Notes under the pieces: generated by a model
The model's database searches: none
The model's input: the letters and a program-made list of their open reading frames with translations, nothing else
What the model was told of the DNA's origin: nothing
Assembly: GCA_963757755.1 (NCBI GenBank)
Contig: CAVWTK010000007.1
Span: 132,629-196,628, forward strand
DNA length: 64,000 bases
Direction of reading: 5' to 3'
Source of the DNA: an uncultured bacterium
GTDB lineage: Bacteria; Desulfobacterota; Binatia; HRBIN30; CADEER01
Part shown: positions 2,974 through 58,974 of the stretch, piece by piece
How positions within the stretch are numbered: position 1 is the first letter of the stretch
How the letters are laid out: every line of letters starts with the position of its first letter
Made by a program: the position numbers and the translations under genes

Positions 2974-3185
2974 ACATGTGGCGACGCTGCAAGCCGTTCT
3001 CGAACAAGAACCGAGACGGGGCATTGCTGCTGCGAAGGCTCCTTGGGCCGATTCGGCTGGAACCGGTCAGACCGGAGGTCGGGCGTCCCTACTACCGCGC
3101 CGTCTCGACGCTTGACGCGCTGGCGATCGTCGAGGAGGACCCCGACGACGATCCGTCGGAGTCCAGTTCGAGTTCTTTGCGAAAG

Positions 3186-3534
3186 TGGAGGCGGGGGGAA
3201 TTGAACCCCCGTCCGGAAGTGATTCACAGCAGCGTCTACGTGCGTAGCCAGGTGATTTGATCTCGCCGTCTTGGCTCCCACCGGCAGGATTCGCAACGGC
3301 CAGCTCGTAAGTTTTCGTCCCCAGCCTACGAGCGTCGGTAGGGGCTTATCCCGAGTTTATGACGTTTGGGTCCGGCCCTACGGGAGCGTGCCGGTCAAAC
3401 GCTGGCGACCGTTAAGCAGCCAGAGCGAACGTATTGTCTGCGTTTAGTTTTCGCAGCCTGGGTTTTGGCGGGCCCCAAGTACCCGTTGCACGCAACTGCC
3501 GCTTCACAACCTCCGTCGAACCCAATTCGCCCCC
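3186..3534 (-). ncRNA. ssrA: tmRNA (one-piece)
   Basis: The minus-strand RNA begins GGGGGCGAAUUGGGUUCGACGG and ends GGACGGGGGUUCAAUUCCCCCCGCCUCCA. It has a 7-bp acceptor stem with a G3:U pair. The tag frame GCA GAC AAU ACG UUC GCU CUG GCU GCU UAA (ADNTFALAA*) lies at 3412-3441. CCA is not fully encoded. Confidence 0.93.
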
Positions 3535-15764: not shown

Positions 15765-17306
15765 TCAGGGGCGCGACGCGACCACGGACGACGGCGGCGC
15801 CGGCGCGTCCGCCATCCAGTGCGTCGCGCCGGCTTTGGTGAGCCGTCCCAACAGCATCTGGGTCGTCGGCTCGATGCGGTCGAGGAACGGCTTCGGGTAG
15901 AGGCCGATCCAGAAGATCATGCACGAGGATCGGGGCGATCGCGAGCACCTCGCGCACCGAGAGATCCTCGAGCGTCTTGTTCACGGCGTGCTTCACCGGG
16001 CCGAAGAAGACGTGCTTGTAGAGCGTCAGCATGTAGGCGGCGCCAAGCACGACGCCGAAGGACGCCGATGCCGCCCGCCAGCCAGTGGGCGCGGAAGGCG
16101 CCGAGCAGGATGAGGAACTCGCCGACGAAGCCGTTGGTCCCCGGCAGGCCGATCGACGACAGCGTGATGACCAGGAAGAGCGCCGCGAACGTCGGCATGA
16201 TGCTCCACAGCCCGCCGTACTCCTCGATCAGGCGCGTGTGGCGGCGATGGTAGATGTAGCCGACGAGGATGAAGAGCGCGCCGGTCGACAGGCCGTGGTT
16301 GATCATCTGCAGCACGCTGCCGGTCACGCCGACGTTGTTGAAGGCATAGAGGCCGAGCATGACGAAGCCCATGTGGCTCACGGACGAGTAGGCCACCAGC
16401 CGCTTCATGTCGGGCTGCAGCAGCGCGACCATGGCGCCGTAGATGATGCCGACCACCGCCAGGGTCATGATCACCGGGAACGCCTGCTCGGCGGCGTGCG
16501 GGAACATCGGCAGCGAGAAGCGCAGGAACGCCGTAGCAGCCCATCTTCAGGAGGACGCCGGCGAGATCGACCGAGCCGCCGGTCGGCGCTTCGGTGTGCG
16601 CGTCGGGCAGCCAGGTGTGCAGCGGCACCATCGGCACCTTGATCATGAACGCCAAGGTGAACGCGGCGAACAGGAGCACCTGCTCGAGGTCGGTGAGGTC
16701 CACCGAATAGAGCGTGACGATGTCGAAGGTGAGCGGATGCGTCTGCGCGTGGCGCAGGACGAGGTAGATCATGCCGGCCAGCATCAGCGCGCTGCCGCTC
16801 ATGGTGAAGAGCACGAACTTGATCGTCGCGTAGCGGCGGTTCGGGCCGCCCCACACGCCGATGATGAAGAACATCGGGAACAGCATCAGCTCCCAGAAGA
16901 GGAAGAACAGGAACAGGTCGACCGCCAGCAGCGCGCCGAGCATCATCCCCTCGAGGGCGAGGATGAGCATCATGAACTGCTTGCAGTTCTTCACGATGTC
17001 GCCCCACGCCGCGAGGATGATCGAGGGCGTCAGCAGGGTGGTCAGGAGCACGAGCCACAGCGAGAAGCCGTCGACGCCGAGCGCGTAATTGACGCCGAGG
17101 GCGGGGATCCACACGGCGCGCTCGGTGAGCTGCAGATCGCCGACCCCGGCCTGGAACATCGCCAGCATGATCAGTGCGAGCCCGAAGGGGATGAGCGAGA
17201 ACGCAAACGCCGCGCGGCGCGGGATCTGGAGCGGCTCGCCCGGGAGCAGGCCGATGAGGAACGCGCCGGCGAGCGGTGAGAAGATGATCAGCGACAGGAT
17301 CGGCAT
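15765..17306 (-). pseudogene. nuoM: NADH-quinone oxidoreductase chain M-like antiporter subunit, at least 3 frameshifts
   Basis: Conserved NuoM sequence is split over ORFs 16026..17336, 15917..16507 and 15715..16050. The last 55 codons (IFWIGLYPKPFLDRIEP...) are in a further frame after an extra C near 15925. Whether it is truly a pseudogene or a sequencing artefact is unresolved. Confidence 0.8.
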
Positions 17307-17316
17307 CGCGCGCCCC

Positions 17317-19251
17317 TCAGACCACCAGTATCGCAACCACGAACAGGGCGCCGATCAGCATCGCCAACGCGTACGCCTGCACGTTGCCGGTCTGCAGCCG
17401 GCGGACGCGGCCGCCGATGACGCGGACGAGGTCGCCGACGCCATTCACGGCACCGTCGATGTACTCCGTGTCGACCACCTGCCAGAAGTAGCGCGACAGG
17501 CGCACGTACGGCTGGATGAACAGCATGTCGTAGAGCTCGTCGACGTAGTACTTGTTCCACAGCACCCGGTACACCGCGCTGAGACGCGCGGCGATGCGGT
17601 CGGCGAGGTCCGACGGCTGGCCGTACATCAGATAGTCGAGCCCGATGCCGGCCAGGCCGACGCCGCTGGCGACGGCGATGAGGAACACGAGCGTACCGGT
17701 CGTCGGGTGAGGCACGTGCCGCGAGCATCGCCACCGACGGCTCGAGGTAGTGGCCGATCTCGTCGCCCCACAGCAAGCCGTGCGGCAGGCCGATCCAGCC
17801 GCCGAACGCCGACGAGCACCGCCAGCACGATCAGCGGGATCGTCATGGTGCTCGGCGACTCGTGCAGGTGGTGCGCTTTCTCCGGATCGACGCGGCTCGT
17901 CGCCCTCGAAGGCGAGGAAATAGGCGCGGAAGACGTAGAAGGCGGTCATGCCGGCGGCGACGACGCCGATCAGCCACAGCCAGGTGTGGCCGCTCATGTA
18001 GGCGGCCTCGAGGATCATGTCCTTCGAGAAGAAGCCGGAGAAGCCGGGGAAGCCGGAGATCGCCAGGGCCGCGACCAGGAAGGTGCGCGCGGTGATCGGC
18101 ATCTGCCTTCTTCAGGCCGCCCATCTTGAAGACGTCGAGCTCGCCGTGCATCGCGTGCATGACGCTGCCGGCGCAGAGGAACAGGCAGCGCCTTGAAGAA
18201 GGCGTGCGTCATCAGATGGAAGATCGCCGCCGAGAAGGCGCCGCAGCCGAGGGCGAGGAACATGTAGCCGAGCTGCGAGACGGTCGAGTAGGCGAGGATC
18301 TTCTTGAGGTCGCGCTGCACGAGGCCGATGGTCGCCGCGAAGAACGCGGTGGCGGCACCGATGATGGCGACGAGGTTCAACGTCTCCGGCGAGAGCACGT
18401 AGAGCGGCGACAGGCGGGCGATCATGTAGACGCCGGCGGTCACCATGGTGGCGGCGTGGATCAGCGCCGAGACCGGCGTCGGGCCGGCCATCGCGTCGGG
18501 CAGCCAGACGAACAGCGGAATCTGCGCCGACTTGCCGGTGGCGCCGATGAACAGCAGCAGGCAGACGGCCGTGACCACCGCCGGCGACCACTCCGCCAGC
18601 TTGCGGCGCGAGGCGGTTGATGTCGGCGAAGACCAGCGTCGGCGAATCGACCTGACCGAGGCTCCAGAAGAGCAGGAACATGCCGACCAGGAAGGCGGCG
18701 TCGCCGATGCGGTTGGCGATGAAGGCCTTGCGGCCGGCATCGGCGTTGGCCTCGTCGAGGTACCAGAAGCCGATCAGCAGATACGAGCAGAGGCCGACGC
18801 CCTCCCAGCCGATGAACATCATCGGCAGCGAGTCGCCGAGCACCAGGATCAGCATCGCCGTGGTGAACAGGTTCAGGTAGGCGAAGAACCGCGCCACGTC
18901 CGGATCGTCGTGCATGTAGCCGAGCGAGTAGACGTGGATGAGGAAGCCGACGCCGGTGATGATGAGGATCATCACGCTCGTCAGGTGATCGACGCGGAAG
19001 GCGGCCTCGAGGGTCAGCGGCGTCGCATGGATCCACGTGTACATGCGGTCGAGCAGCGCGCCCTCGGGCGGGAGCTGCAGGAGCTGGCCCACCGTGACCA
19101 GGGCGAACGCGAACGCCGCCAAGACCGACAGCGGACCCGCGAGCTTCGCCAGCGCCGCGCGGTTGGTCTTCGCGGCGATCAGGCAGAGGATCGTGCCGAT
19201 CAACGGACAGAGCACGATCCAGCGGAGGAGGGCCGTTTCGACTACGGGCAT
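17317..19251 (-). pseudogene. nuoL: NADH-quinone oxidoreductase chain L-like antiporter subunit, at least 6 frameshifts
   Basis: The N-terminus [14 protein letters not shown]...[17 protein letters not shown] is in the frame of ORF 18112..20316. It continues in ORFs 18015..18740, 17843..18160, 17317..18102, 17628..17846 and 17288..17776. Full length is about 645 codons. Confidence 0.8.
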
Positions 19252-19321
19252 ATCATTAGCGGGGTTGAACAGCCGCCGGTTCTTGCATGAACGGTTCGAC
19301 GCGGCAAGTCTAGACTGCGCC

Positions 19322-19489
19322 AGGAGCGCGGGCCTCCGTGCCCGTGGCGACGCGGAGCGTCGCCGGAGTGGACGCGGCGGCAGGCGCGAGACACCATCGG
19401 TCTCGGCGAGCATGCATGTCAACGCCACGCCCGCCGCGCTCCTCCGGGCGACGCTCCGCACCGCCACGGGCACGGAGGCCCGCGCTCCT
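19322..19489. repeat. GC-rich nested palindromic element, AGGAGCGCGGGCCTCC type (long form)
   Basis: 43-nt arms with 2 mismatches. The inner mini-hairpin is GGCGACGCGGAGCGTCGCC. It lies in the divergent nuoL/MHS promoter region. Confidence 0.85.
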
Positions 19490-19500
19490 TCCCGCCCCAC

Positions 19501-20793
19501 GTGATAGAAGCGGCGCGCCATGGCCGCGTCGGAACGATCCGCCGCCCGTCTCTCCCGCTGGCGCTGATCGCCGGAATGTCCGGCAATTTGATGGAGTGGT
19601 ACGACTTCGCGCTCTACGGCGTGCTCGCCTCCACGCTCGGCCAGCTCTTCTTTCCGAGCGGGAACCGGCTGCTGGCGTTGCTCTCCGTCTTCGGCGTCTT
19701 CGCCGCCGGCTACCTGATGCGCGTCATCGGCGGCGGCGCGTTCGGCCATATCGCCGATCGGCTCGGCCGCCGCCGGGCGCTGCTGCTCTCGGCCGCCAGC
19801 ATGGCCGTCGCCACGGCCCTCGTCGGCTGCCTTCCCACCTACGCCACCGCCGGCGTGGCGGCGCCGGTGCTGTTCACGGTCTTCCGGCTGATTCAGGGCC
19901 TGTCCGTGGGCGGCGAGTTCACCACCTCGGTCGCCTATCTGATCGAGCAGGCGCCGCCGCACCGGCGCGCGCTGCAGGGCAGCCTCGCCGGCCTCACCGG
20001 CGGCATCGGCATCCTTCTCGGCTCGGCGCTCGGCAACGCACTGTTCGCCATCTACAGCCCCGAGGAGGTGCTCGCCTGGGCGTGGCGGCTGCCCTTCCTG
20101 CTCTCCGTGCCGCTCGGCCTGTCGATGGCGATCCTGCGCGCGACCCTGCCGGCGGATGCGCCCGACGAAACCGCGGCCGCGGCGCCGTCGCCGGTGTGGC
20201 GCGTGCTCCGCCAACACCGCGGCGAGATCCTGCGCGGCGTCCTGCTCGGCTGGGGTCCGAACGCCGCCTTTTATGCGGTCGCGGTCTTCCTCGGCTCGTT
20301 CCTCGCTACCGAGCACCTGCTCCCGCAGCAGACGGCGCTCGGTCTGCAGACCAGCGCGATCGCGCTGATGGTGGCGCTGACCCCGGTCGCCGGCTACCTC
20401 GCCGACCGGTTCGGCCGCCGCACCGTCGTGCTCACCGGGATCGCCGCCTGCGCCGTCGCCGCGGTGCCGCTACTGGCGATCCTGCGCGATGGCGATCCGA
20501 CCAACGATCTCTTCGCCGAGCTCGCGTTCGCCGTCTGCATCATCGCCACCCTTCCGCCGTACCAGGTGTGGCTCGCCGAGCGCTTCCCCCGCGATCTGCG
20601 CGCGAGCGGCCTCGGTCTCGCCTACAACGGCGCCGCGGGCATCCTCGGCGGCACGACGCCGCTGCTCTGCGTCTCGGCGGTGGAGCTGACCGGCAGCACG
20701 CTCGCGCCGGGCGCGTACGTCGCGGTCGCGTGCGCCGTGAGTCTGCTGATCGCGATCCGCACACCGGAGACCGGCGACCGGCCGCTGACCTGA
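19501..20793 (+). CDS. MFS transporter, MHS (metabolite:H+ symporter) family
   Basis: Intact 430-aa [16 protein letters not shown] motif, 12 predicted TM segments. GTG start. Confidence 0.8.
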
Positions 20794-20892
20794 CGATCGC
20801 CTCGAGCTGGATGGCCGGCGTCGCCAACTTCGGCGGCGCGAGGCCATAGAGCACGATCCTCGCCTCGCGTGCGGCAATCTTCTCATGAAGCA

Positions 20893-22432
20893 TCATCCAA
20901 AGACCTTACCGCAGAGACGCGGAGGCGCGGAGCTCGCAGCAGCTCGCTCGTCCGATCTCTGCGTCTCCGCGCCTCTGCGGTGGAGCTCTGAGCTCCCCGC
21001 GGCGTCGCGCGCGGGGCGTTCATAGCCGGGGCGTAAGGTCGACATGAAGGCGACCAGCGCGGTGACTTCCGCCGGCCGCAGATTCTTGCCGTAGGCGGGC
21101 ATGTTGCCGCCGCCCTGCAGGACCTGGCGGACCAGTTGATCGGGGGTCAGGCGCGTCGCGACGTCGTCGAGGGCCGGGCCGCGCATGCCGCCCTCCCCGC
21201 CCAGGCTGTGGCAATTGCGGCACTGCTTCGCTTGCAGGACGATGGCGCCCTGCAACTCGAGCGGGCCGCGGCTCTTGACGAACTTGACGGGCGTTGGCGC
21301 GCCGCTCCACGCGTCCATCACCGGCGACCACGGCGAGTAGGTCCCGAGCCAGGCGAGCACGCTGCAGCGTGAGCATGATGACGATGACGCTCAGCACCGC
21401 CACGGGACGCCGCCGCGCGCTCTTCTCGCCGGTGTTGGAGAGGAACGGCACCAGGAAGAGGATGATGATGCCGACCACCGGCGCGACGAGGATGAGGACC
21501 GTCTCCATGTACGGCGGCAGCAGCGCGAAGGCGGAGAACAGCGGCAGGAAGTAGAAGTCGGGCCGCGGGTTGGTCTCGATCAGGGTGGGATTGGGCGGGC
21601 CGTTCGGACCCGCGGGGCCGAAATAGGCGGCGCAGGCGAGGATCGCGAGGATCAGGAAGCCGGCGAAGACGAGGTCCTTGCCGATCGCGTGCGGCACGAA
21701 GGCACGCCCTCTTTCTTGAGGATCTCTTCGTACTCCTCGTGGTAGGTCGCCGGGTCCACCGGCACGCCCGGCCGCGGATACTCGTTGATGCCCGCCGCCA
21801 GCACGAGGCGCAGGTGCACGCTGATCATGGCGATGATCAGGCCCGGCAGGACGAAGACGTGCAGCGTGAAGAAGCGCGAGAGCGTCTCGCCGGCGATGAT
21901 CGGTCCGCCGAGCAGCAGCGACGTGAGCGCCGCGCCGAGCACCGGCGTGCGCGCGAGGATCGCCGTGCCGATGCCGAGGCCCCAGTAGGCGTCCTGGTCG
22001 AAGCGCAGCACCTGGCCGGTGAACGCCATGCCGAGCGCGCACAGGAAGAGCACGCAGCCGGTGATCCAGGTCAGCTCGCGCGGATACTTGAAGGCGCCGA
22101 ACAGGAACACCTGGATCATGTGCAGCGTCATGATCGCCACCATGAAGTTGGAGCCCCAGTTGTGGACGGCGCGCAGAAACCAGCCGAGGTACTGGTCGTA
22201 GTTGAGGAAGATCAGGCTCGTCCACGCCTGGTCCGCCGACGGCACGTACGTCAGCGACAGGCACATGCCGGTGACGATCTGGATGACGAAGCACAGCAGC
22301 GTGCCGCTGCCGAAGACGTAGAACCAGCTGCCGGAGCTCGCCGGCACACTGTGCCCGGCCGTCGACTCGAACAGCTTGCGTCAGGTGCAGGCGTTCGTCG
22401 AGCCAGACGGCGATGTTCTGAGCCAGGCGCAT
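20893..22432 (-). pseudogene. cytochrome b with fused C-terminal mono-heme cytochrome c domain, at least 3 frameshifts
   Basis: The start MRLAQNIAVWLDERLHL, the cyt b core in ORF 21652..22347 (FYVFGSGTLLCFVIQIVTG...HNWGSNFMVAIMTLHM), a subunit-IV-like part (PDFYFLPLF) in ORF 21020..22432, and a CRNCH heme site in ORF 20893..21360. The C-terminal tail runs into a hairpin repeat, so the stop is uncertain. Confidence 0.75.
20906..20983. repeat. octamer-armed hairpin, TTCACC family (CGCRGAG variant)
   Basis: ccgcagagacgcggaggcgcggag / ctctgcgtctccgcgcctctgcgg. It lies between the convergent MHS transporter and cyt b 3' ends. Confidence 0.8.
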
Positions 22433-22523
22433 GTGGCTTATGGTCTACGGCCCGTGGCCTGAACCGTCATCGGAAGGCGTGCCCCTCTGGCCACGCGCCA
22501 TCTGCCGTCAGCCATGAGCTCCC

Positions 22524-23019
22524 TCACACGCCCTGCGCCAAGGTCGGCAGCTGGCCGCCGCGCACCAGGAGCTGGTCGCCGTCGACCTTGTACTCGTACT
22601 CGTAGAGTCGGCGCGGCGGCGGACCGGAGGCGCGCGTCGCCATCCTCGTAGTAGACGCCGCCGTGGCACGGGCACATGAACAGCCCCGACTCGGGGAACC
22701 AGCGCACCGGGCAGCCGAGGTGGGTGCAGTTGATGGCGAACACCTGGAAGCGGTCGGCGGCGATGCGCCGCACCCAGCACGGCACCTCGGCGGTCTCGCC
22801 GTCCCACGGCGTCTTGAACGGATTCGTGTACGTCGCGAGCCGCGTCTGCCCGACCGGAAAGGCGTCGAGCGCGCCGAGCGTGATCCACGCCTGATCGCGC
22901 CGGCGATTCTTCAGCGCCCCGCCGAGGTAGCCGACGATCGGGATCGCCAGCAGCGCCGCCGCAACCGCGTTCAGGGCCATGCCGAGGGTGACGAGGAAAT
23001 TTCGCCGTGAGGTTTTCAT
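22524..23019 (-). pseudogene. Rieske [2Fe-2S] protein, 1 frameshift near 22650
   Basis: Tat-type MKTSRRNFLV, CTHLGC...CPCHGG. After GVYYEDG the conserved end (GPPPRRLYEYEYKVDGDQLLVRGG...) lies one base out of frame. Confidence 0.8.
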
Positions 23020-23027
23020 TGCTCTTC

Positions 23028-23133
23028 TTCACCACGGAGGCGCGGAGACACGGAGATCTCGGCGCGCGGGTCCCTCTTATTTTTTGTCTTCGTCTTCATT
23101 CCGTTCTCCGGATCTCCGTGCCTCCGTGGTGAA
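23028..23133. repeat. octamer-armed hairpin, TTCACC family (CACGGAG units) with ~55-nt loop insert
   Basis: ttcaccacggaggcgcggagacacggag ... ctccgtgcctccgtggtgaa. It lies between the cyt c stop and the Rieske start. Confidence 0.8.
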
Positions 23134-23135
23134 CA

Positions 23136-23803
23136 TCAGGGAAACTGTGGACGCTTCGAAACCATCCATGCCACGACGTCGCTGATCTCCTGCTCGCTCA
23201 TCGGCGTCTGCGAGCCGGCGCGCCAGTCGGGCATGCCGAGGTCGATCCGGCCGCAGATCACGGCGAGGCGCAGCGCCTGGTCGGTGACGAGGCCGAGGTA
23301 GGCGCCGTCGACCACCGAGCCGCCGTGCGGACCGCCGCTCCCGTCGGCACCATGGCAGGAGGCGCAGCGCGCCGCGTACACCTGCGCACCGGTGTCCGGT
23401 ACGCCGGGGGCCATCGCCGTGTACGGCGGCAGCTGTTCCGGACGCAGCCCGCGCGCCCCCCACGTGCTGATGAGGCCGTCGGCGATGATGCCGACCTGAT
23501 CGTCGGTCAGCATACCGCCCGACGACGGCAGCGAAGCCCGGCATCGTGGTGTTCGGCACGCCCTCCGCGGTCGCGTGGAGGAGACGCTCGCGGCCGGCGA
23601 TCGTCAGATAGACGGGATCGTTGAGCGGACGCGCGCCGCCGAAGAGACCGTCCTGCCCGTGACAGCCCGAACAGTTCTGGCCGTACAGCGTGGCGAAAGT
23701 CGACGACCTGCGCCGGCCGCAGCGGCCGATCCGCTTCGGTCGGCTTGCCCGGGAGCGAGTCGCAAGCGGCCAGCAGACGTGCGTCACCGCCAGCAGGAAG
23801 CAC
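23136..23803 (-). pseudogene. diheme cytochrome c (lipoprotein-like N-terminus), at least 2 frameshifts
   Basis: LLAACDS lipobox-like segment, first CSGCH site in the frame of ORF 23077..23787, second CASCH site in ORF 23136..23513. The start (GTG 23803) is tentative. Confidence 0.65.
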
Positions 23804-23814
23804 GTTCGGCAAAC

Positions 23815-24650
23815 TCAGCTCGTTGTCCTTCGTTTCCGTCAGCCCCGGCGCTTCGATGCCGGCGCGGGCGGCGAACGGCAGGCTCTGCATCGTGCGGATG
23901 CGCTGCGAGTGCGTGATCACCGCGCCGGCGGCGAGGCCGAAGGCGAACTGCGACGCGACGAACCACTGCCAGTCGATGCGATCGTCGAGCGCCGGATTGA
24001 TCACGCCGAGCGACGCCCAGAGCAGGCCGCTCCACACCAGCGGCGCGATGAAGCCGCCCCACACCGCCGGGCGGCGCGGGAACATCGGCAGGATGGCGGC
24101 GTAGACGAGGCCGACGAAGATCGAGATGGCGATGTGGCTGATCAGCGCGACTCCGAAGGCCAGCCCGTCGAAGGCCATGAGCTGCGCCGTGTCGGCGGTC
24201 GCGAGCGAGGGCATCGCCACCGCCGCGAGCAGGTTGATCGGGATACCAGAGGCTGCCGTAGGCAATCACGCCGTAGGCGCAGGCCACCACCGCCATGGCG
24301 GCGCCGCCCACCAGGCCGCCCAGGATGCCGGACGAATACGGATGGAACTCGACCGGGATGCGCAGGCGGTGTCCCTCGACACCGGGCACGAGCTGCGCGA
24401 CCGCACGCGTCACCGGCTGGGCCGGCTGGGCGCGGCGCGCCAGCGGCAGCAGCGCAACCTCCTCGACGTGCTCGACCGGCAGCACCTCGCGGAACCAGCC
24501 GACGGCGCCCGCGATCACCAGCACCACGCCGACCATCGTGACCAGCGGATGCATGACGAGCCCGGCGAAGCCGAGCGCGACGCCCAGCGCCGCCACCATC
24601 GGCCAGGCCGTCGGCGCCGGCAGCTCGATGCGGTCGTCCGGCGCGCTCAT
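23815..24650 (-). pseudogene. polytopic membrane protein of unknown function inside the oxidase cluster, at least 1 frameshift
   Basis: ORF 23784..24650 (MSAPDDRIELPAPTAWPMVAALGV...) continues in the frame of ORF 23507..24265 (INLLAAVAMPS...FVGLVYAAILPMF...). About 7 hydrophobic helices. The 3' end is not defined. Confidence 0.45.
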
Positions 24651-24681
24651 CGGTGCACGGCCCTTCCGCGTCGCCGATCGG

Positions 24682-25265
24682 TCATCGTCCCACCACGTAG
24701 ACGACGGTGAACACGACGACCCACACCACGTCGACGAAGTGCCAGTACCACGACAGCACCTCGACCCGTTCAGCGTGCGACTCGCGCACCGCGCCGCGCA
24801 GCGCGAACACGAGCACCAATCCGAGCAACAGCAGTCCGACCGTGACGTGCCCCGCGTGGAAGCCGACCAGCGAGAAGTAGGTCGTGCCGAAGAGGTTGGT
24901 CCAGATCGTCAGGTTGTGGTCGTAGATCAGGCCCTTCCACTCGATGGCGGTGGCGACGAGGAAGAAGCCGCCGAGCGCGATGGTGACCGCCCACCACACG
25001 GCGAAGCCGCCGTGCGCGCCGCGGCGCAGCGCCCGCACCGCCAGGGTGATGGTGATGCTGCTCGACAGCAGCGCGATGGTGGCGAGCAGCGGCACGTCGA
25101 GCACATCCTGCGGGTACGGGCCGGTCAGGCTCTTGCCGATGTAGAAGAGGTACGCGGCGACGAAGACGGCGAACAGGCCGACTCGGCGAGGATCATGCAC
25201 GCCATTCCCACGCGCCCGCGGTTGGCGCCGTGGCCGACGGGCGCGCCGGCAGCGACCGCGCTCAC
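24682..25265 (-). pseudogene. ctaE: cytochrome c oxidase subunit III, 1 frameshift
   Basis: The C-terminal part of ORF 24682..26178 ([15 protein letters not shown]...[14 protein letters not shown]). The GTG start overlaps the cox1 stop (GTGA). Confidence 0.8.
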
Positions 25266-26937
25266 TCGTACTTCCAGTCGGGATCGTCGGGATGCTTGAG
25301 ATCCCACAGCGGACGGCGCGCTGCGCACCGTCGGGATGGTCTCGAAGTTGTAGTCCGGCGGCGGCGAGGTGGTGGACCACTCGAGCGTCCACGCGTCCCA
25401 CGGATCGTCGCCGGCCGGTGTGCCGCGGCGCAGCGCCCAGAAGATGTTGATCACCAGCAGCAGCACGCCGAGGATCTGGAACGGCACGCCGATGGTGGAC
25501 AACGCGTTCCACAGCTCGAGCCCGCGGCCGGAATCGTAGGTGTAGATGCGGCGCGGCATGCCGAGCATGCCGGAGATGTGCTGCGGCAGGAACGTCAGGT
25601 TGAAGCCGAGGGTGAAGATCCAGAAGTGCCACTTGCCGAGGCGCTCGCTGAGCATCCGGCCGGTGGCCTTGGGGAACCAGTAGTAGAAGGCGGCGAAGAC
25701 CGTGAAGAGCAGGCCGCCGATCAGCACGTAGTGGAAGTGGGCGACGACGAAGTAGGAGTCGGACAGCTGCCAGTCGAACGGCGCCGCCGCCAGCATCACG
25801 CCGGTCAACCCGGCGCAGAGGAACTGGAAGAGGAAGCCGGTGCAGAACAGCATCGGCGGCGCGAAGCGGATGCTTGCCGCCCCACATCGTGCCCAGCCAG
25901 TTGAAGATCTTGATGCCGGTGGGCACGGCGATGAGCATCGTCGAGAAGACGAAGAAGGTGTTGGCGCCGGCGGTCATGCCGACGGTGAACATGTGGTGCG
26001 CCCAGACGCCGAGGCTGATGAAGCCGATCGACACGGTCGCCGCGACCATCACCGAGTAGCCGAAGATCGGCTTGCGCGAGAACACCGGGATGATCTCGGA
26101 CGCGCAGGCGAACCCGGGCAGCATGAGGATGTAGACCTCGGGGTGGCCGAAGATCCAGAAGAAGTGCTGCCACAGCACCGGCCGAGCCGCCGGCCTGGGT
26201 GTCGAAGAAATGCGCGCCGAGGAAGCGGTCGAAGAGCAGCATCACCTGCGCCGCCGACAGCGGCGGCAGCGCGATGCAGCATCTGGAAGAAGACCACCAG
26301 CATCAGCCAGACGAAGAGCGGCAGGCGGCGGAAGGTCATGCCCGGGCAGCGCATGGTGAAGATGGTGGCGATCAGGTTGGCGGCGGTGGTGAGGCTGCCG
26401 ACGCCGCCGACCAGCAGGCCGATGATCCAGTAGTCGGTGCTGTTGCCGCGCGAGAAGGCGCGCCCGGTGAGCGGCGCGTAGGCGAACCAGCCGACGTCGG
26501 GCATCGAGCCGGCGCCGTACAGCCCGTCGCCGCCGAACACGCTGAAGTAGAGCAGCAGGCCGCCGAAGAGGAACATCCAGAAGCCGAAGGCGTTGAGGCG
26601 CGGGAACGCGAGGTCGCGCGCCCCGATCATCAGCGGGATGAGATAGTTCCCCATGCCGATGATGATCGGCATGCCGACCAGGAACACCATGCTGGTGCCG
26701 TGCATGGTGAACAGCCGGTTGAACACCTGCGGCGACAGGAAGGTGTTGTTCGGCACCGCCAGCTGGATGCGCATCGCCGTCGCCTCGAGCCCCGCGATGA
26801 CGAAGAACACCAGCCCCGCCATGATGTACATCAGCCCCGAGCTTCTTGTGATCGACCGTCGTCACCCACGCGTGCAGCACCGTGGTGACCCCGGGGCGCG
26901 TACGGGGAATCGCGATCGGATGTTCGGCGACAGCCAT
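25262..26937 (-). pseudogene. ctaD: cytochrome c oxidase subunit I, at least 5 frameshifts
   Basis: Highly conserved CoxI blocks ([16 protein letters not shown]-type [41 protein letters not shown]) are spread over ORFs 26242..26937, 26049..26831, 25805..26245, 24682..26178 and 25125..25853. Confidence 0.85.
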
Positions 26938-26950
26938 CGTTCAGACGCCT

Positions 26951-27021
26951 TTCACCACGGAGGCACGGAGACACGGAGCTTGGCGGCATTGTTCTCCGTG
27001 TCTCCGTGCCTCCGTGGTGAA
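26951..27021. repeat. octamer-armed hairpin, TTCACC family (CACGGAG units), perfect copy
   Basis: ttcaccacggaggcacggagacacggag - 15 nt - ctccgtgtctccgtgcctccgtggtgaa. It lies between the cox2 stop and the cox1 start. Confidence 0.9.
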
Positions 27022-27032
27022 TTCTTTTGTCT

Positions 27033-28101
27033 TCATTTCAACGTCGTCAGATACGCGACGATCTCTTTCACATCGGCATCCGCCAGCTGCATCGCCGGCA
27101 TCAGCACGCCTGGCTTGATCGCGTCGGGGTTGGTGATCCAGGCGTGGAGCGCGTCGGCGGTGTTCGGTGCGGCGCCGGCGGCGATGGTCTCGCGGCTCAT
27201 GAGGTGCGTGAGGTCGGGACCGAAGGCGCCGTCGGCGACGGTGCCGCCGATGCGGTGGCAGTTCATGCAGGCCACCGATTGGAACAGGTCGCGCCCGGTC
27301 GTCGCCGAGGTCGCCATCGCCGCCGGCGCGCGTTGTCCGGCGACCCACGCGTCGAACTCCGCCGGCGGATGGGCGATGACGCGCAGCATCATGCGCGCGT
27401 GCTGGGTGCCGCAGTACTCGGCGCACTGGCCGAGGTAGGTCCCGGCCTCGGTGCGGCTCGAACCACATGCGGTTCACGCGGTTGGGGATCACGTCGGTCT
27501 TGCCGTTCAGCTGCGGGATCCAGAAGCTGTGGACGACGTCGGCCGACTCGAGCGTCAGGAACGTCGCCCGCCCGACCGGCACGTGCAGCTCGTTGGCGGT
27601 GACGACGCCCTGCGTCCGGGTAGCGGAACTCCCACCACCACTGGTGGCCGATAACGCGCACGTGCAGGGCGTCGTCCGGCGGGGTCGCGTTCTCGATGGC
27701 GATCAGCGTCCGCGTCGTGACCAGGAAGAGCACGAAGACGATCAGCGTCGGGACCACCGTCCACGCCAGCTCGATCTGGTTGCTGCCGTAGATCTGCGGC
27801 GGCTCGCGGTCCTCATCGCCGGGCCGCGCCCGGAACCGTACGATGCTGTACGCGAGCAGGCCGCGCGACGATCACGAAGATGGCGGCACTGATGCCGAGC
27901 ACGAGCACCGACAGCACATGGATGCTGTCGCGCCGGCGGCGAGTGCGGATCGAAGATGCTCGGAACCGGCCCGGGCGCCGCCGCCGCGCATGTCGGTACG
28001 AGCAGGCTGGCCAGCAGCCCGAGCGCGCGTCTCGCCTCACGCTCTCGTACCCCGCACCACAACACGCGATCGGCTAACCACATCCGCGTCAAGGTCGTCA
28101 A
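27033..28101 (-). pseudogene. ctaC: cytochrome c oxidase subunit II with C-terminal cytochrome c domain (caa3 type), at least 3 frameshifts
   Basis: The CuA region (HSFWIPQLNGK...CAEYCGTQHARM) is split over frames. The CMNCH heme site is in ORF 27033..27392. The start may be Met 28083 instead. Confidence 0.8.
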
Positions 28102-28238: not shown

Positions 28239-30065
28239 CTACTGACACCGCCTGACGCTGCCGCTGCCGTTGCTCGTGCACGCGACCGCGGTGCCGAGTG
28301 CGCACTGGCCGGCGTCGCTCTCGGCCTGAGTCGGACCGAGGACCCAGGTGATGCGCAGCGGGCCGACCGGAGCCGCGATGGTGGCGTCGCGCGCCTTCAG
28401 CTGGAGATCGAGATCGGACGAATCCTTCGTCTTGTAGCGGATCTGGCTGAGCCCGTTGGCGGAACCGGCGGTGCACACCGGCGGGTCGAGGGCGCCGGAG
28501 CGGTTGCGGTAGAGGTTGCGCGCCGCGTCCCATCCCTCGCCCGCCTCGCAGACGCCGGCGGCCTGCCCCGGCACCGGCGTGGTGAAGCGGCTGAGCTCGT
28601 AGACGGACGCGCTGCCGTTGCCGAGATCCTCGATGAGGAGCTGGGCGCCGGCGGCGTACGGCGCAGCGACGGGAATGCCGGCGGGAAAGAACAGCGAGGC
28701 CTTGAGCGACACGCTCTGATCGCCGGCCGCGGAATTCAGGCCGCCGAGCTTCAGCTTCACGTTGCCGAGCGCGCCCCCGCCCGTGCAGAGCGGCGTGCTC
28801 ACCGGCGGTACGCAACCGCCCGAGACCGCTTGCGGGGTCCACCAGTTGCCCGACATGACGATCATCGCCAGCAGCTTGAGCGTGTTCTCGTAGTAGGCCT
28901 CGGCGTCGAGCGACGTGGCATTCACGAGGTCCCAGATACCGTTCAACCAGGCCTGATTGGTGGCGTCGGCCATCGCGCCCACGCCGAACGGTGCGACGAA
29001 CGCCATCGAGCGATAGTCGGCGCCGGCGCTCAGCGTACCGTCGAGCTGGTAGCCGGACTGGATGTTGGCCGGATCGTTGCCGGTCGCCGCGCGGATCCAG
29101 GTGGTCATGCGCTGCACGGCGGTCTTGGCGCGCGCGTCGCCGGAGACCAGGAAGTCGGTGCCGAGACGCCATGGATCGCGGCAGGCGTTGTAGTCGTACG
29201 CGCCGTCGTTGGGGCCCTCGAGGAACCCCGGCCCAACCGGCGACGGCGTGCCGAGCGGGTTGGCGATGAAGTCGGGCAGCAGACCGGTGGTCGGGCTGTG
29301 GGTCGTCTGCAGGCCGTCGAAGACCGTGTAGGTGTGGTTGAGGATGCTCGTCCACACCGGGTTGCCCGACGCGGCGGCGAAGGCGCGCAGGTGGTCGGGC
29401 ATGAAGTCCGACGAGCGCGTCGACTGATAGTACTGCGGATCGTCCGTGGGATCGGTCCAATCGCCGAGGCGCAGGTACGAGCCGCTGGTGTCGACTTCGC
29501 CGGTCTGGATGCCGGCGAGGACGTTCGCCGCTTCCGCCGCGTAGTCGATCGCGCCGCAACTGCCCCACTGCTTGTCGGCGAGCAGCAGCGCATAGGCGAT
29601 GTCGAGGTCGCCGTCGGTGGCGCTGTCCCCGCCCTGCGCGTCGCCGCACGACTTGCGCTGGTACCAGGCCATCAACCCCGGCGTGAAGATCGACGGATGC
29701 TCGCGGAAGAACGTGAACATGCCGTCGAAGATGGCGCGCGCGTCGGGGTCGTGCCCGGCCATCAGCGCCGCCAGCACCATGCCGTAGCCGTGCGCCTCGG
29801 ACACCGTGAGGTTGCCGGATTGCGTCTTCGCCTCGACGACGTAGCGGCCGGCGCCGCACGTCTGCTTGAGGAAGCGCCCCTTCCACGCGTCGTAGAAGTC
29901 GCGGGTCGCCTGGTCGAGCGCCGCCGGCGCGTGGTTGCTGGGGAGAATCGACCCGGCCGCGTAGCTCGCCGGGTGCGAGCCGAAGGGGTGGTTCTGCGCA
30001 CGAACGGCGCCGCTCAGCGCCAACAGCGCCGCCGCCACCAGGCCTGCCCGCCGGATGAGTGCCAT
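28239..30065 (-). CDS. secreted glycoside hydrolase family 8 enzyme with extra ~180-aa C-terminal domain
   Basis: Signal peptide MALIRRAGLVAAALLALSGAVRA. GH8-type TVSEAHGYGMVLAA and SATDGDLDIAYALLLA. Intact ORF. Confidence 0.75.
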   Translation of the reverse strand: MALIRRAGLVAAALLALSGAVRAQNHPFGSHPASYAAGSILPSNHAPAALDQATRDFYDAWKGRFLKQTCGAGRYVVEAKTQSGNLTVSEAHGYGMVLAALMAGHDPDARAIFDGMFTFFREHPSIFTPGLMAWYQRKSCGDAQGGDSATDGDLDIAYALLLADKQWGSCGAIDYAAEAANVLAGIQTGEVDTSGSYLRLGDWTDPTDDPQYYQSTRSSDFMPDHLRAFAAASGNPVWTSILNHTYTVFDGLQTTHSPTTGLLPDFIANPLGTPSPVGPGFLEGPNDGAYDYNACRDPWRLGTDFLVSGDARAKTAVQRMTTWIRAATGNDPANIQSGYQLDGTLSAGADYRSMAFVAPFGVGAMADATNQAWLNGIWDLVNATSLDAEAYYENTLKLLAMIVMSGNWWTPQAVSGGCVPPVSTPLCTGGGALGNVKLKLGGLNSAAGDQSVSLKASLFFPAGIPVAAPYAAGAQLLIEDLGNGSASVYELSRFTTPVPGQAAGVCEAGEGWDAARNLYRNRSGALDPPVCTAGSANGLSQIRYKTKDSSDLDLQLKARDATIAAPVGPLRITWVLGPTQAESDAGQCALGTAVACTSNGSGSVRRCQ

Positions 30066-30172
30066 CGCGTACCCCACGGCGCGGTATGCCGCAGGCGCGC
30101 CGCCTGAGCAAGTGCGTTTCGATCCACTGTCGAGCGGCGGTTCCGCGCTTGCCGCCCTTCGGTCCGTTCACG

Positions 30173-46621: not shown

Positions 46622-46707
46622 ACGTGCTGATGTGCTGACGTGCGGACGTGCTGACGTGACCTAGAGCCAGCGAACCTCAGTACGTCAGTACGTCAGCACG
46701 TCAGCAC
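46622..46707. repeat. octamer-armed hairpin, ACGTGCTG units
   Basis: acgtgctgatgtgctgacgtgcggacgtgctgacgtgac - 16 nt - tcagtacgtcagtacgtcagcacgtcagcac. It lies between the two adjacent ACAD genes. Confidence 0.85.
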
Positions 46708-46724
46708 TCTTTGAGGGAGTACCC

Positions 46725-47860
46725 ATGGATTTCGCATTCACCGAAGACCAGGACGCGCTGCGTCAGCTCGCGCACAAGATCTTTGCCGATCACTGCACGC
46801 ACGAGCGGCTGCGCGCGGTCGAGCAGACGCCGGAGTGGTTTCGATCGCGCGCTGTGGGACGATCTGGCCAAGGCCAATCTGCTCGGCGTGGCGTTGCCCG
46901 AGGACGTCGGCGGCAGCGGACTCGGGCTCCTCGAGCTCGCGGTGCTGCTCGAGGAGCAGGGACGCGCGGTGGCGCCGGTGCCGCTGTGGCCGACGCTCGT
47001 GCTGGCGGCGCTGCCCATCAACCTGTTCGGCTCCGAGGCGCAGCGCCAGCGTTGGCTGCCCGGCGTGGCACGCGGCGAGACGATCCTCACCGCCGCGCTG
47101 ATCGAGAACGGGTACGACGACACCAGCACCATCCTCGCGACGGCGCGCCGCGACGGCAGCACCTGGCGGCTCGACGGCGCCAAGACCTGCGTGCCCGCCG
47201 CCCATCTGGCGGCGCGCATCCTCGTCCCGGCCCGCACCGGCGACGCGGCGGCCGGCATGTTCCTCGTCGACCCGCACGCCGCCGGCGTGCAGCTGCAGCG
47301 CGACATCGCCACCAACGGCGAGCCGCAGGTCGAGCTGCAGCTGAGCGGCGCCACCGTCGGCGCCGATGACGTGCTCGGCGACCCGCAGGGTGGCGGCGCC
47401 ATCCTCGACTGGACGCTGCAACGCGCCCTCGCCACCTTGTGCGCCACCAACGTCGGCGTCGCCGACGCGGCGCTGCGCATGACGGCGACCTATCTCACCA
47501 ACCGCAAGCAGTTCGGCAAGCCGCTCGCGACCTTCCAAGCGGTGGCGCAGCGCGCCGCCGACGCCTTCATCCAGGTCGAGGGCATGCGATGGACGGCGTG
47601 GCAGGCGGTCTGGCGCCTGGCCGCAGGGACAGGCCGTGCCCGAGGACGTCGCCATCGCCAAGTTCTGGGCGGGCCAGGGCGGCCACTTCACCACCTACGC
47701 GGCGCAACACCTGCACGGCGGCATGGGCCTCGACCTCGACTATCCGGTGCATCGCTATTTCCTCTGGTCGAAGGCCATCGAGCTGACGCTCGGCAACCCG
47801 ACGCAGCATCTGGCCAAGCTGGGGGCGGCCATGGCACAAGCGGAGGCGTACCCGACCTGA
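46725..47860 (+). pseudogene. acyl-CoA dehydrogenase (partner of the preceding ACAD), 2 frameshifts
   Basis: The N-terminus is in ORF 46725..47369, the core in ORF 46711..47949 and the C-terminus in ORF 47636..47860 (HLHGGMGLDLDYPVHRYF). Confidence 0.75.
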
Positions 47861-54806: not shown

Positions 54807-55278
54807 ATGATTCGCATCGGCAGACTGACCGACTACGGCATCGTGCTGCTGAGCCACATGGCGACGCGGCCAGATCGCGTTCACACGGCCACCGAGCTGG
54901 CGGCGGAGACCCATCTGCCGCTGCCGACGGTGAGCAAGCTGCTGCGCCTGCTCACCAGGGAGGGGCTGCTCGCAGTCGCAGCGCGGCGTGAAGGGCGGCT
55001 ACGGCCTGGCGAGCACGCCCGAACGCATCACCGTCAGCAGCGCCATCGCCGCCCTCGAAGGGCCGATCGCCATCACCACCTGCACCTCGGCGGCGCCGAG
55101 CGACTGCGCGCACGAGCCGATCTGCCCGGTGCGCGGCCACTGGAATCTCATCAACCTCGCGATCCGCCAGGCGCTCGACAGCGTCACCCTGGCCGATCTC
55201 GCCCGTCGCCCGCGCCTGATGCCGCTGCCCACCCTGCGCGCGGCCGGCGGCCGCGCCGGCCGCGCCGTCGGCCGATAG
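54807..55278 (+). pseudogene. Rrf2-family (IscR/SUF regulator-like) transcription factor, 1 frameshift near 54975
   Basis: MIRIGRLTDYGIVLLSHM...LPLPTVSKLLRLLTREGLL in ORF 54768..55412. It continues (GGYGLASTPERITVSSAI...C..S....C.....C) in ORF 54988..55278. Confidence 0.75.
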
Positions 55279-55290
55279 GAGACGCGCGCC

Positions 55291-56744
<1,454 letters not shown>

Positions 56745-56827: not shown

Positions 56828-56844
56828 GAAGAGAAACGATTTCT

Positions 56845-57614
<770 letters not shown>

Positions 57615-57618
<4 letters not shown>

Positions 57619-58960
57619 GCCGCGTCAGCCCGAGATCGAGCAGCACCTGGCGACACCTGCCGGCACCCTGCTCGACGGCGCGCCGGCCTTCGCTGCGCGC
57701 CCTGCGCCAGCGCGGCACTGGCGCGCTTCGCCGACGCTCGGCTTTCCGACCACGCGCGCTCGAGGACTGGAAGTACACCAACGTCGCGCCGCTCGCGCGC
57801 GCAGGCGTTCCGCCTGGCCGACGACGGCGTGCCCGACGGCGCCGCGGCGCTCGCCGCGCGCCGCCCGCCTCGGCGGCGGCATCGAGCTGGTGTTCGTCAA
57901 CGGCCGCTTCGCGCCGGCGCTGTCGACGCGTCGCCGCGCTGCCGGCCGGCGTCGTCGTCGAGCAGCCTGGCCGCCGCCCTGGCCGCGCACGCCCGCGCTG
58001 GTCGAGCCGCACCTCGGCACGCTGCGCCGGCGATCGACGACGACGGCCTCGCCGCGCTCAACACCGCCTTCGTCCAGCGACGGCGCCTTCGTCCACCTGC
58101 CCGACGGCGCGAGCTCGACGTGCCGATCCACTGCCTGTTCGTCTCGCTCGCCAACGGCACGCCCGATCGTCAGCCATCCGCGCATCCTGATCGTCGCCGG
58201 CGCCGGCAGCCGCGCCACCGTCGTCGAGCAGCACGTCGGCGCGGCGGCGACGCTACTGGACCAACGCCGTCACCGAGATCGTCGCTCGGCGCCGGCGCCG
58301 CGCTGGCGCATCACAAGGTGCAGCGCGAGAGCGACCGCGCGCCTTCCACGTCGCCGCCGATCGCCGCCGCGCAGGCGGCGCGACAGCCGCTTGACCTCGC
58401 ACGCCGTCTCGCTCGGCGCCGCGCTGGTCGCGCAACGCCATCGCCACCGCTTCGACGCGCCCGGGCGCCGCCTGCACCTTCGACGGGCTCTACCTCGCCG
58501 GCGGCGCGCAGCACGTCGACCACCACACCACCATCGACCACCGCCGGCCGCGCGTGCACCAGCCGCGAGCTGTACAAGGGCATCCTCGACGGGCGCGCCA
58601 CCGGCGTCTTCAACGGCAAGGTGTTCGTGCGCGCCGACGCGCAGCAGACCGACGCCCAGCAGATGAACAAGAACCTGCTGCTCTCGCGACGACGCCGCAG
58701 GTCGACACCAAGCCGCAGCTCGAGATCTTCGCCGACGACGTCAAGTGCAGCCACGGCGCCACCATCGGCCAGCTCGACGAGGACGCGATCTTCTACCTGC
58801 GCGCGCGCGGCATCGACGCGCCCGCGGCGCGCGCAGCTGCTCATCTACGCCTTCGCCAACGAGCTGATCGACCGCGTCGCGCGTCGCGCCGCTGCGCGCG
58901 CAGCTCGAAGAGCTCCTGCGCCGCGCGCTTCCGGGCGCGAAGCCGCTGCCGAGGTGCCGC
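57615..58960 (+). pseudogene. sufD: Fe-S cluster assembly protein SufD, many frameshifts; boundaries approximate
   Basis: [13 protein letters not shown] near 57765. NLLLS...PQLEIFADDVKCSHGATIGQLDEDAIFYLRARGI around 58670-58810. Confidence 0.65.
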
Positions 58961-58974
58961 GATCGAGAGCCGCG

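Follow-up and report, generated by a model that had tools for sequence, protein, structure and literature searches.

Genes and frame breaks in the window

The DNA analysed here (the window, 64,000 nucleotides of a draft genome from an uncultured bacterium) carries a nuoL-nuoM pair, a Rieske/cytochrome b/cytochrome c/cox cluster, an acyl-CoA dehydrogenase (ACAD) gene and an Rrf2-sufBCDSUT operon (Table 1), all of them described in the initial annotation as broken by 1-nt indels. This description was confirmed by frameshift-aware protein-to-DNA alignment to the window, in which the intact orthologues of a same-genus genome (G001) served as the reference; protein-guided alignment was chosen because gap counts from plain DNA alignments are uninformative in diverged blocks. 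Altogether, 17 genes hold around 79 single extra bases and around 10 missing ones, so that about eight of every nine break events add a base, random in identity and in surroundings. The minimum counts first given for each gene were reached or passed, cytochrome b coming to three only when its deletion is counted, and the three example sites (near 15925, 23700 and 25315) were located at ~15921, ~23698 and ~25319. The Rrf2 gene, whose break had not been singled out before, carries one insertion.

Table 1. Broken and intact genes of the window, named by Pfam matches of the G001 orthologues where so indicated; identities are those of frame-corrected proteins to G001
Feature	Coordinates	Strand	Frame breaks and remarks	Basis of name
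nuoM-like (Proton_antipo_M)	15771..17321	-	3 insertions: ~15921, 16057, 16532; 465/516 aa identical, no stops	Pfam
nuoL-like	17320..19263	-	6 insertions: ~17719, 17813, 17901, 18103, 18188, 18603; 572/646 aa identical	Pfam
MFS (MHS-type) transporter	19501..20793	+	one intact 430-aa frame; absent here in G001	MFS_1, Sugar_tr
Cytochrome b, C-terminal cytochrome c domain	20992..22460	-	insertions ~21364, 22378 (22433 uncertain); deletion ~21705; 438/488 aa identical	Pfam
Rieske 2Fe-2S subunit	22527..23040	-	1 insertion ~22635	Pfam
Dihaem-type cytochrome c	23139..23864	-	insertions ~23529, 23698 (23795 uncertain)	Pfam
291-aa conserved protein	23819..24706	-	insertion ~24242 (24670 uncertain)	no Pfam match
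cox3 (COX3)	24685..25310	-	one missing base ~25178	Pfam
cox1 (COX1)	25265..27032	-	insertions ~25319, 25872, 26179, 26276, 26838; 509/585 aa identical	Pfam
cox2 with cytochrome c domain (caa3 type)	27036..28101	-	4-5 insertions: ~27453, 27613, 27863, 27924	Pfam
GH8 glycosyl hydrolase	28242..30124	-	intact; first clean gene past the island	Pfam
ACAD	46665..47857	+	2 insertions: ~46845, 47623	Pfam
Rrf2 regulator	54816..55251	+	1 insertion ~54972	Pfam
sufB	55279..56741	+	5 insertions: 55306, 55460, 55740, 55795, 56078; 443/485 aa identical	Pfam
sufC	56830..57613	+	7 insertions	Pfam
sufD	57608..58950	+	~20 insertions, 3 deletions (~1 per 57 nt), densest stretch	Pfam
sufS	58933..60243	+	8 insertions, 2 deletions	Pfam
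sufU (NifU_N)	60195..60693	+	5 insertions, 1 deletion	Pfam
sufT (FeS_assembly_P)	60779..61347	+	5 insertions	Pfam
Two intact genes after sufT	61358..62829	-	176 aa with CxxCH haem motif; 314 aa secreted protein; absent here in G001	

A GC3-phase Viterbi track gave the same picture, with a same-strand coding phase that flips every 80-800 nt in four stretches of the window (15.7-19.2, 20.8-27.9, 46.8-48.2 and 54.8-61.4 kb) and about once per 100 nt in the suf island. As had been claimed, the neighbours are clean: 1-15.7 kb and 28.2-46.6 kb consist of single-phase runs 0.5-2.5 kb long, the MFS gene is one frame and neither of the two genes after sufT is broken. Clean genes have zero internal events, the few terminal calls falling within N-termini padded by the analysis. 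Within an island every gene is affected, and error density spans five-fold inside a single one, from 0.35% in sufB to 1.7% in sufD.

The broken pieces remain family-like, in agreement with the initial reading. Frame-corrected proteins keep 88-91% amino-acid identity to G001 with no internal stop, and over the ~17 kb of broken genes stops, larger indels and amino-acid drift are all absent. Moreover, sequence between the extra bases is conserved as well as elsewhere. The comparison with a sister genome, proposed in the initial annotation, revealed that G001 is single-phase across all orthologues of the broken genes and intact at those sites. An early impression of frameshifts in G001 itself, at Rieske-cox3 and sufD-S, was discarded on the clean phase track of that genome; its long mixed-frame ORFs are not frameshifts, since such ORFs are normal at 70% GC.

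Extent of the breakage and gene redundancy

The genome comprises 7.2 Mb in 9 contigs, with a completeness of 68%. Defining an island bin as a 5-kb bin with at least 6 same-strand phase switches, 405 of 1446 bins (~28%) qualify. As a baseline, a 649-kb contig of the sister genome (G001:C8) showed 0.37 same-strand switches per kb, no 5-kb bin holding more than 8; against this background the switching of the suf island is far beyond chance. The large contigs of the genome under study reach 0.79-1.19 switches per kb, which implies an excess of at least ~3,700 over the sister baseline. The ratio of +1 to -1 switches is 2.4-2.8:1 in dense bins vs ~1:1 in sparse ones. Among the pairs with G001, 64 of 265 orthologues are broken. 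Genes split in the same manner include rpoB, present only once, both copies of tuf and two class-I tRNA synthetase (aaRS) genes.

The suggestion that redundant paralogous operons had been hit did not hold, and the intact second copies whose search had been advised were not found for suf and cytochrome b. Cytochrome b is single-copy in the genome and the window holds its sole SufB/D locus, while nuoL/M and cox1 have only distant paralogues (27-41% identical for nuoL/M, ~37% for the other cox1 copies, on contig C9). A near-identical duplicate of the region, as expected of a second strain, was found nowhere else in the bin, and a scan of a collection of genome contigs gave distant relatives only. 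An exact-protein look-up for the MFS gene, aimed at an independent contig, gave no record, and public metagenomes scanned with an unbroken 224-aa piece of cytochrome b gave no same-species contig, the best match being 79% identical at the amino-acid level.

Signature of the inserted bases

The insertions are spread over the three codon slots (24/19/19), and the inserted bases (C24, G19, A10, T9) agree with the ~70% GC composition. Only 16 of 62 duplicate an adjacent base, which rules out homopolymer error. At 33 well-placed sites the codon contexts are all different and information does not exceed 0.17 bits anywhere within +/-5 nt, ruling out a methylation-motif basecalling error or a shift-site motif. 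Nor do insertions concentrate beside wobble sites, so that a wobble-site "allele doubling" was also rejected; this is contrary to a simple model in which both alleles of a SNP are kept. GC content was excluded as a driver because the dense bins of the genome show no GC deficit (0.706 vs 0.694; rho 0.21), and the GC offset relative to G001 is inconsistent from island to island.

The residual errors classically left by Nanopore sequencing are homopolymer deletions. The strong insertion bias seen here, with no link to homopolymers, departs from that profile. Instead, it resembles the one of raw PacBio CLR reads, with 8% insertions and 3% deletions (10.1101/2021.08.23.457338).

Islands lie in DNA shared with relatives

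The initial annotation placed the breaks in the most conserved operons, a restriction that the data do not support. Within the 265 orthologue pairs, the broken share is 21-23% for each class of protein identity up to 90% and 36% above it (rho 0.07, p 0.23), and neighbours just as conserved are clean, for example 14.3-15.1 kb, with 84-86% nucleotide identity in six relatives, and 36.5-37.6 kb, with 92.6% amino-acid identity in a tblastn match.

The islands are almost confined to shared DNA. Coding DNA that aligns to the sister species has 0.83 switches of the +1 type per kb, vs a baseline of 0.21 per kb in unalignable coding DNA. In a circular-shift test, the observed count was 40 against 113 +/- 18 expected, and none of 2000 shifts was as low; simulated insertions were detected equally in the alignable and unalignable classes (93% and 97%). 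Event density is 0.53-0.55 per kb where nucleotide identity lies below 82% and climbs to ~0.9-1.0 per kb above that level. Moreover, island edges are sharp at lineage-specific genes, and no breaks occur in the lineage-specific inserts within or beside islands, which are the MFS gene and the gene pair after sufT; around the MFS gene, positions 19308-20995 match only ~200 bp in G001. As equally conserved shared genes adjoining the islands are also clean, sharing with relatives is necessary for breakage, not sufficient.

Origin of the frame breaks

From the pattern of the sequence we infer that the frame breaks were, very probably, introduced in the consensus of a long-read metagenome assembly and are not mutations that the organism carries, since they consist of random single bases, patchy over the whole draft, that reach essential genes. 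On this point the initial preference for a consensus or polishing artefact over decay is upheld by the genome-wide extent of the breaks, the splitting of essential genes, the randomness of the insertions and the lack of stops or drift. As to how such errors would arise, a cause in mixed populations is slightly favoured. In shared stretches, the noisy single-molecule reads behind the consensus would form a heterogeneous pile-up, in which the target population is mixed with congeners or co-occurring strains whose reads map or collapse onto the same place. Correction by accurate reads may not have succeeded in such stretches, and the consensus caller would then have output extra bases, while a homogeneous pile-up would give a clean consensus in stretches unique to the population. 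The role that the initial annotation gave to related populations thus has indirect support, from the contrast in +1 switch rates between shared and unshared DNA and the circular-shift test. Points against the account as a whole are the insertion bias without a homopolymer link, the lack of any gathering of insertions beside wobble sites, the clean shared genes that adjoin the islands and the five-fold range of error density inside one of them.

Known systems offer partial parallels. Frameshifting indels persist in long-read MAGs whose depth is not uniformly high (proovframe preprint, 10.1101/2021.08.23.457338), and ORFs of an Antarctic soil Nanopore assembly were still fragmented after Racon/Medaka/Pilon polishing (PMC8692599). 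As in those cases, single-base indels split healthy genes here, essential ones too, and depress marker-based completeness; such errors are worst in complex soil samples without uniformly high depth. Unlike them, the errors described here are insertions in a proportion of ~8:1, have no tie to homopolymers and are patchy (~28% of bins) and limited to DNA shared with relatives. Microdiversity effects have been noted for the long-read MAGs of Microflora Danica (PMC12313526). A consensus collapsed over strains or species has in common with our case the kilobase-scale islands, the errors only in sequence common to related genomes and the clean lineage-specific inserts, but it differs in that the insertions here show no preference for wobble or SNP-like sites and many equally shared genes are clean.

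A rather unlikely alternative keeps the class of artefact but changes its cause. It starts from a noisy long-read backbone, or hybrid gap fills, that accurate short reads mended nearly throughout, correction failing where co-occurring relatives share sequence, either because short reads multi-map or because the short-read graph breaks, so that the islands would be unpolished consensus. Random, insertion-dominated noise of 0.2-1.7% does resemble a raw or low-depth single-molecule consensus, the confinement of islands to shared DNA with sharp edges would follow, and within the ~34 kb of clean regions every gene testable against a G001 orthologue is free of frameshifts. However, the use of short reads would be an assumption; many long-contig soil MAGs of the same collection are Nanopore-only, large catalogues of this kind relying on a single Medaka round (PMC12313526), and one uniform gap fill would not be expected to vary five-fold in density inside the suf island.

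Less probable still is pure low-coverage noise, by which islands would be dips to 1-3 reads in an assembly of few-fold long-read depth, with related populations irrelevant. Islands measure 1-7 kb, a size comparable to read lengths, density differs among islands, the ~28% of affected bins would correspond, by our own estimate, to Poisson dips at ~5x depth, and low coding densities, values examined as a potential mark of Nanopore errors, have been reported in lower-coverage MAGs (PMC12313526). Random dips, however, should strike lineage-specific and shared DNA alike, which is not what the rates of +1 switches and the circular-shift test show.

Genuine recent pseudogenisation of redundant operons, the biological alternative first contemplated, is highly improbable. 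The further cox1 copies and the distant nuoL/M paralogues could be taken in its favour, and many genes are frameshifted as in decaying genomes (e.g., those of recent host-restricted lineages). Those genomes, however, spare essential genes and show stops, deletions of all sizes and relaxed protein conservation, none of which is found here. The broken rpoB, tuf and aaRS genes already contradict this reading, as do the single-copy sufB/D and cytochrome b, the intact G001 orthologues and the ~17 kb of broken genes free of stops, larger indels and drift; the 8:1 insertion bias, the kilobase clustering and the thousands of events are equally unlike mutational decay. We likewise give very little credence to extra bases being real in the DNA, whether in a dying or relic population or mutator lineage whose recombined core-genome tracts gained +1 insertions by the thousand, or tolerated through context-free recoding. 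Programmed +1 recoding at the insertion sites, by ribosomal frameshifting or transcriptional slippage, is barely conceivable: nearly all events are +1 and downstream frames are conserved, but the sites share no common codon, motif or slippery run, are missing from the same-genus orthologues and reach a density of 1 per 57 nt in sufD.

Consequences for the organism and its genome

Altogether, the frame breaks are almost certainly not a real feature of the organism, and there is no biological discovery in them. Descriptions of the living organism should regard its nuoLM genes, bc-type complex, caa3 oxidase, ACAD and SUF system as whole and functional. The assembly is a species representative in which about a quarter of the genes are falsely split, and its 68% completeness underestimates the genome. 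Pseudogene counts, pangenomes and metabolic reconstructions made from it would err, for example by wrongly listing SUF, the caa3 oxidase or the bc complex as lost, and the genome requires frameshift-aware correction. The signature described here, with random single-base insertions, islands in shared DNA and clean lineage-specific inserts, may help to recognise this class of artefact as opposed to decay or recoding.

Frame breaks in the window

With 70% GC overall, this genome has more than 90% GC at third codon positions, and therefore composition alone reveals the coding phase. A seven-state Viterbi model of GC by codon phase (the phase track) gave long single-phase runs at 1-15.7 kb and 28.2-46.6 kb of the window, and four stretches (table) in which the phase changes each 80-800 nt on one strand, nearly always from k to k+1. 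The yardstick for all gene comparisons was G001, a genome of the same genus in 10 contigs and 100% complete. It aligns collinearly over most of the window (78-89% nucleotide identity), and its orthologues of the affected genes are intact and single-phase. When G001 proteins were used as tblastn queries, clean genes gave one HSP in one frame and the affected genes 2-6 HSPs in alternating frames. Protein-to-DNA dynamic-programming alignment, with frameshifts allowed and G001 proteins as guide, placed about 79 single-base insertions versus about 10 deletions. This alignment revealed no internal stops in the broken genes of the window, which after frame correction keep 88-91% amino-acid identity to G001. 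These three analyses confirmed the pattern of broken genes beside intact neighbours described in the initial annotation, and its three example insertions were recovered at ~15921, ~23698 and ~25319.

Features of the window. Phase-switching stretches (each on one strand) are from the phase track, single-base insertions (+1) and deletions (-1) from the frameshift-aware alignment
Feature	Position in window	+1	-1
Phase-switching stretch	15.7-19.2 kb
Phase-switching stretch	20.8-27.9 kb
Phase-switching stretch	46.8-48.2 kb
Phase-switching stretch	54.8-61.4 kb
nuoM		3
nuoL		6
cyt b	20992-22460	2-3	1
Rieske		1
cyt c		2-3
291-aa unknown		1
cox3			1
cox1		5
cox2		4-5
ACAD		2
Rrf2		1
sufB		5
sufC		7
sufD		~20	3
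sufS		8	2
sufU		5	1
sufT		5
MFS (MHS-type) transporter, intact	19501-20793
Post-sufT gene 1, intact	61358-61888
Post-sufT gene 2, intact	61885-62829
sufU/sufT remnant	62903-63016
tmRNA (-)	3183-3534
355-nt element	2621-2975

The gene names already proposed were upheld by Pfam searches on the G001 orthologues, which identified nuoM, nuoL, ACAD, Rrf2, sufB, C, D, S, U and T, a cytochrome b fused to a c-type domain, Rieske, cytochrome c, cox3, cox1 and a cox2 with a cytochrome c domain; only the 291-aa protein of the cluster had no Pfam family match. Cytochrome b (G001 orthologue L018:9104-10573) carries a monohaem cytochrome c domain at its C-terminus (Pfam order Cytochrome_B, Cytochrom_B_C, Cytochrome_CBB3). 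After it come Rieske, a cytochrome c with two stretches that match the Cytochrome_CBB3 family, and the conserved 291-aa protein, all upstream of cox3-1-2.

The transporter gene (within 19308-20995) separates nuoL from cyt b and is read from the other strand; in G001 only ~200 bp lie between those two genes. Copies 80-84% identical occur on other contigs of the relatives G004 and G012, so that the transporter moved or was acquired. Downstream of the two post-sufT genes, specific to the genome under study (G000), we find a 115-nt composite remnant, made of 68 nt 92.6% identical to an internal sufU piece (60461-60528) fused directly to an exact duplicate of the final 50 nt of sufT (61301-61350); the two-gene cassette is therefore flanked by a 50-nt perfect direct repeat. 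This remnant, absent from G001, may have been left by a recombinational insertion, or may mark a point where the assembly joined different haplotypes. At the other end of the window, a tmRNA gene, which scores 170.6 bits against Rfam, encodes the tag peptide ADNTFALAA and has 79-91% identical counterparts in many relatives, adjoins a 355-nt element with a second copy, 99% identical, at C7:387615-387970.

Genome-wide spread

G000 comprises 7.21 Mb in 9 contigs at ~70% GC, with a marker completeness of only 68%; the window is C7:132629-196628. The same phase track, run on all its contigs in 5-kb bins, counted at least 6 same-strand phase switches in 405 of 1446 bins (28%), and such bins were present on every large contig; the distribution peaks at a normal 2-3 switches, with a tail that reaches 43 per 10 kb. 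Same-strand switches reached 0.79-1.19 per kb on the large contigs versus 0.37 per kb on the 649-kb baseline contig G001:C8, where only 2 of 130 bins had six or more. At least ~3,700 switches exceed the sister rate, and this figure underestimates the excess, as events that lie close together are merged. Steps of +1 and -1 were balanced in sparse bins, whereas +1 led by 2.4-2.8 to 1 in dense ones. Of 265 genes of G001:C8 that have an orthologue-like match in G000, 64 (24%) were split between frames. Searches retrieved no exact-protein record for the transporter and, with an unbroken 224-aa cyt b piece as query, no same-species contig in public metagenomes.

Nature of the insertions

The G001 codon alignment allowed 62 insertions to be placed, 33 of them uniquely. 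They fell between codons (24), between positions 1 and 2 (19) or between positions 2 and 3 (19), and the inserted bases (C24, G19, A10, T9) followed genome composition. Slot, base and context being random, four kinds of error are rejected: homopolymer slips, with the neighbouring base duplicated in only 16 of 62 cases; a methylation motif or a programmed shift site, with at most 0.17 bits at any position within +/-5 nt of the 33 uniquely placed events and all their codon contexts different; and simple doubling of wobble SNPs, with no codon-phase preference, likewise among the 22 best-placed events. The insertions look like the random insertion noise of single-molecule reads. Raw PacBio reads carry 8% insertions versus 3% deletions and Nanopore reads roughly equal rates, according to figures quoted in the proovframe preprint (10.1101/2021.08.23.457338). 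Most related records in a contig scan came from a catalogue of long-contig soil MAGs built from Nanopore data only (metaFlye, then a single Medaka round), which does not imply that G000 belongs to it.

Conservation or sharing

The initial annotation had confined the indels to the most conserved operons, a rule that fails: breakage was 21-23% in each orthologue identity class up to 90% and 36% above (rho 0.07, p 0.23), and clean DNA includes conserved pieces at 14.3-15.1 kb (84-86% nucleotide identity in six relatives) and 36.5-37.6 kb (92.6% amino-acid identity in a tblastn match). Instead, a strong association links the error islands to any DNA that the sister species also has. Across the 624 kb of G000 syntenic to G001:C8, +1 switches occurred at 0.83 per kb in alignable coding DNA versus 0.21 per kb, the baseline, in unalignable coding DNA. 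Unaligned DNA held 40 of 314 events versus 113 +/- 18 expected from circular shifts, with none of 2000 shifts as low, and simulated insertions were detected equally in aligned and unaligned classes (93% and 97%). Within aligned blocks, event density was 0.53-0.55 per kb below 82% identity and ~0.9-1.0 per kb above. The window agrees: what is missing from G001 at these positions is precisely the clean transporter and the two clean post-sufT genes.

Origin of the frame breaks

A consensus artefact, as initially suspected, is supported by random, insertion-biased errors that extend genome-wide and split essential genes. Reads from co-occurring strains or congeners were probably recruited or collapsed into shared stretches; noisy long reads of mixed origin would then have piled up there and yielded a consensus that no accurate reads corrected, with stretches unique to the G000 population called cleanly. 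Two variants of the artefact compete with this pile-up: short-read polishing or hybrid gap filling that failed at multi-mapping reads, which is possible but less likely, and plain depth dips, which are disfavoured because they predict equal rates in shared and unique DNA, and the observed rates differ.

The other initial proposal, recent inactivation of redundant paralogous operons, is rejected: the sole rpoB (C7:702.9-704.6 kb) and, nearby, both EF-Tu (tuf) genes are split, on contig C9 two class-I tRNA synthetases lie in four pieces each, and a cell could not live with such essential genes broken. Nor did the search for second copies favour redundancy, since the assembly has a single copy of sufB/sufD and of cytochrome b, the paralogues of nuoL/M share no more than 27-41% identity with the window pair, and two cox1 paralogues on C9 (1.04 and 2.03 Mb), both intact, are ~37% identical to the window copy. 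A second caa3-type cox1 (C2:35931-37249), ~45% identical to that copy, is in five frame pieces, so that its locus is another error island; the rpoB/EF-G/EF-Tu region (C7:694-712 kb) is among the densest of the genome.

The errors are random and insertion-biased, lie in islands, are confined to shared DNA and could not be borne by a living cell. The frame breaks are almost certainly not a real biological feature, and their main value is as a warning on the quality of G000 as a reference genome.
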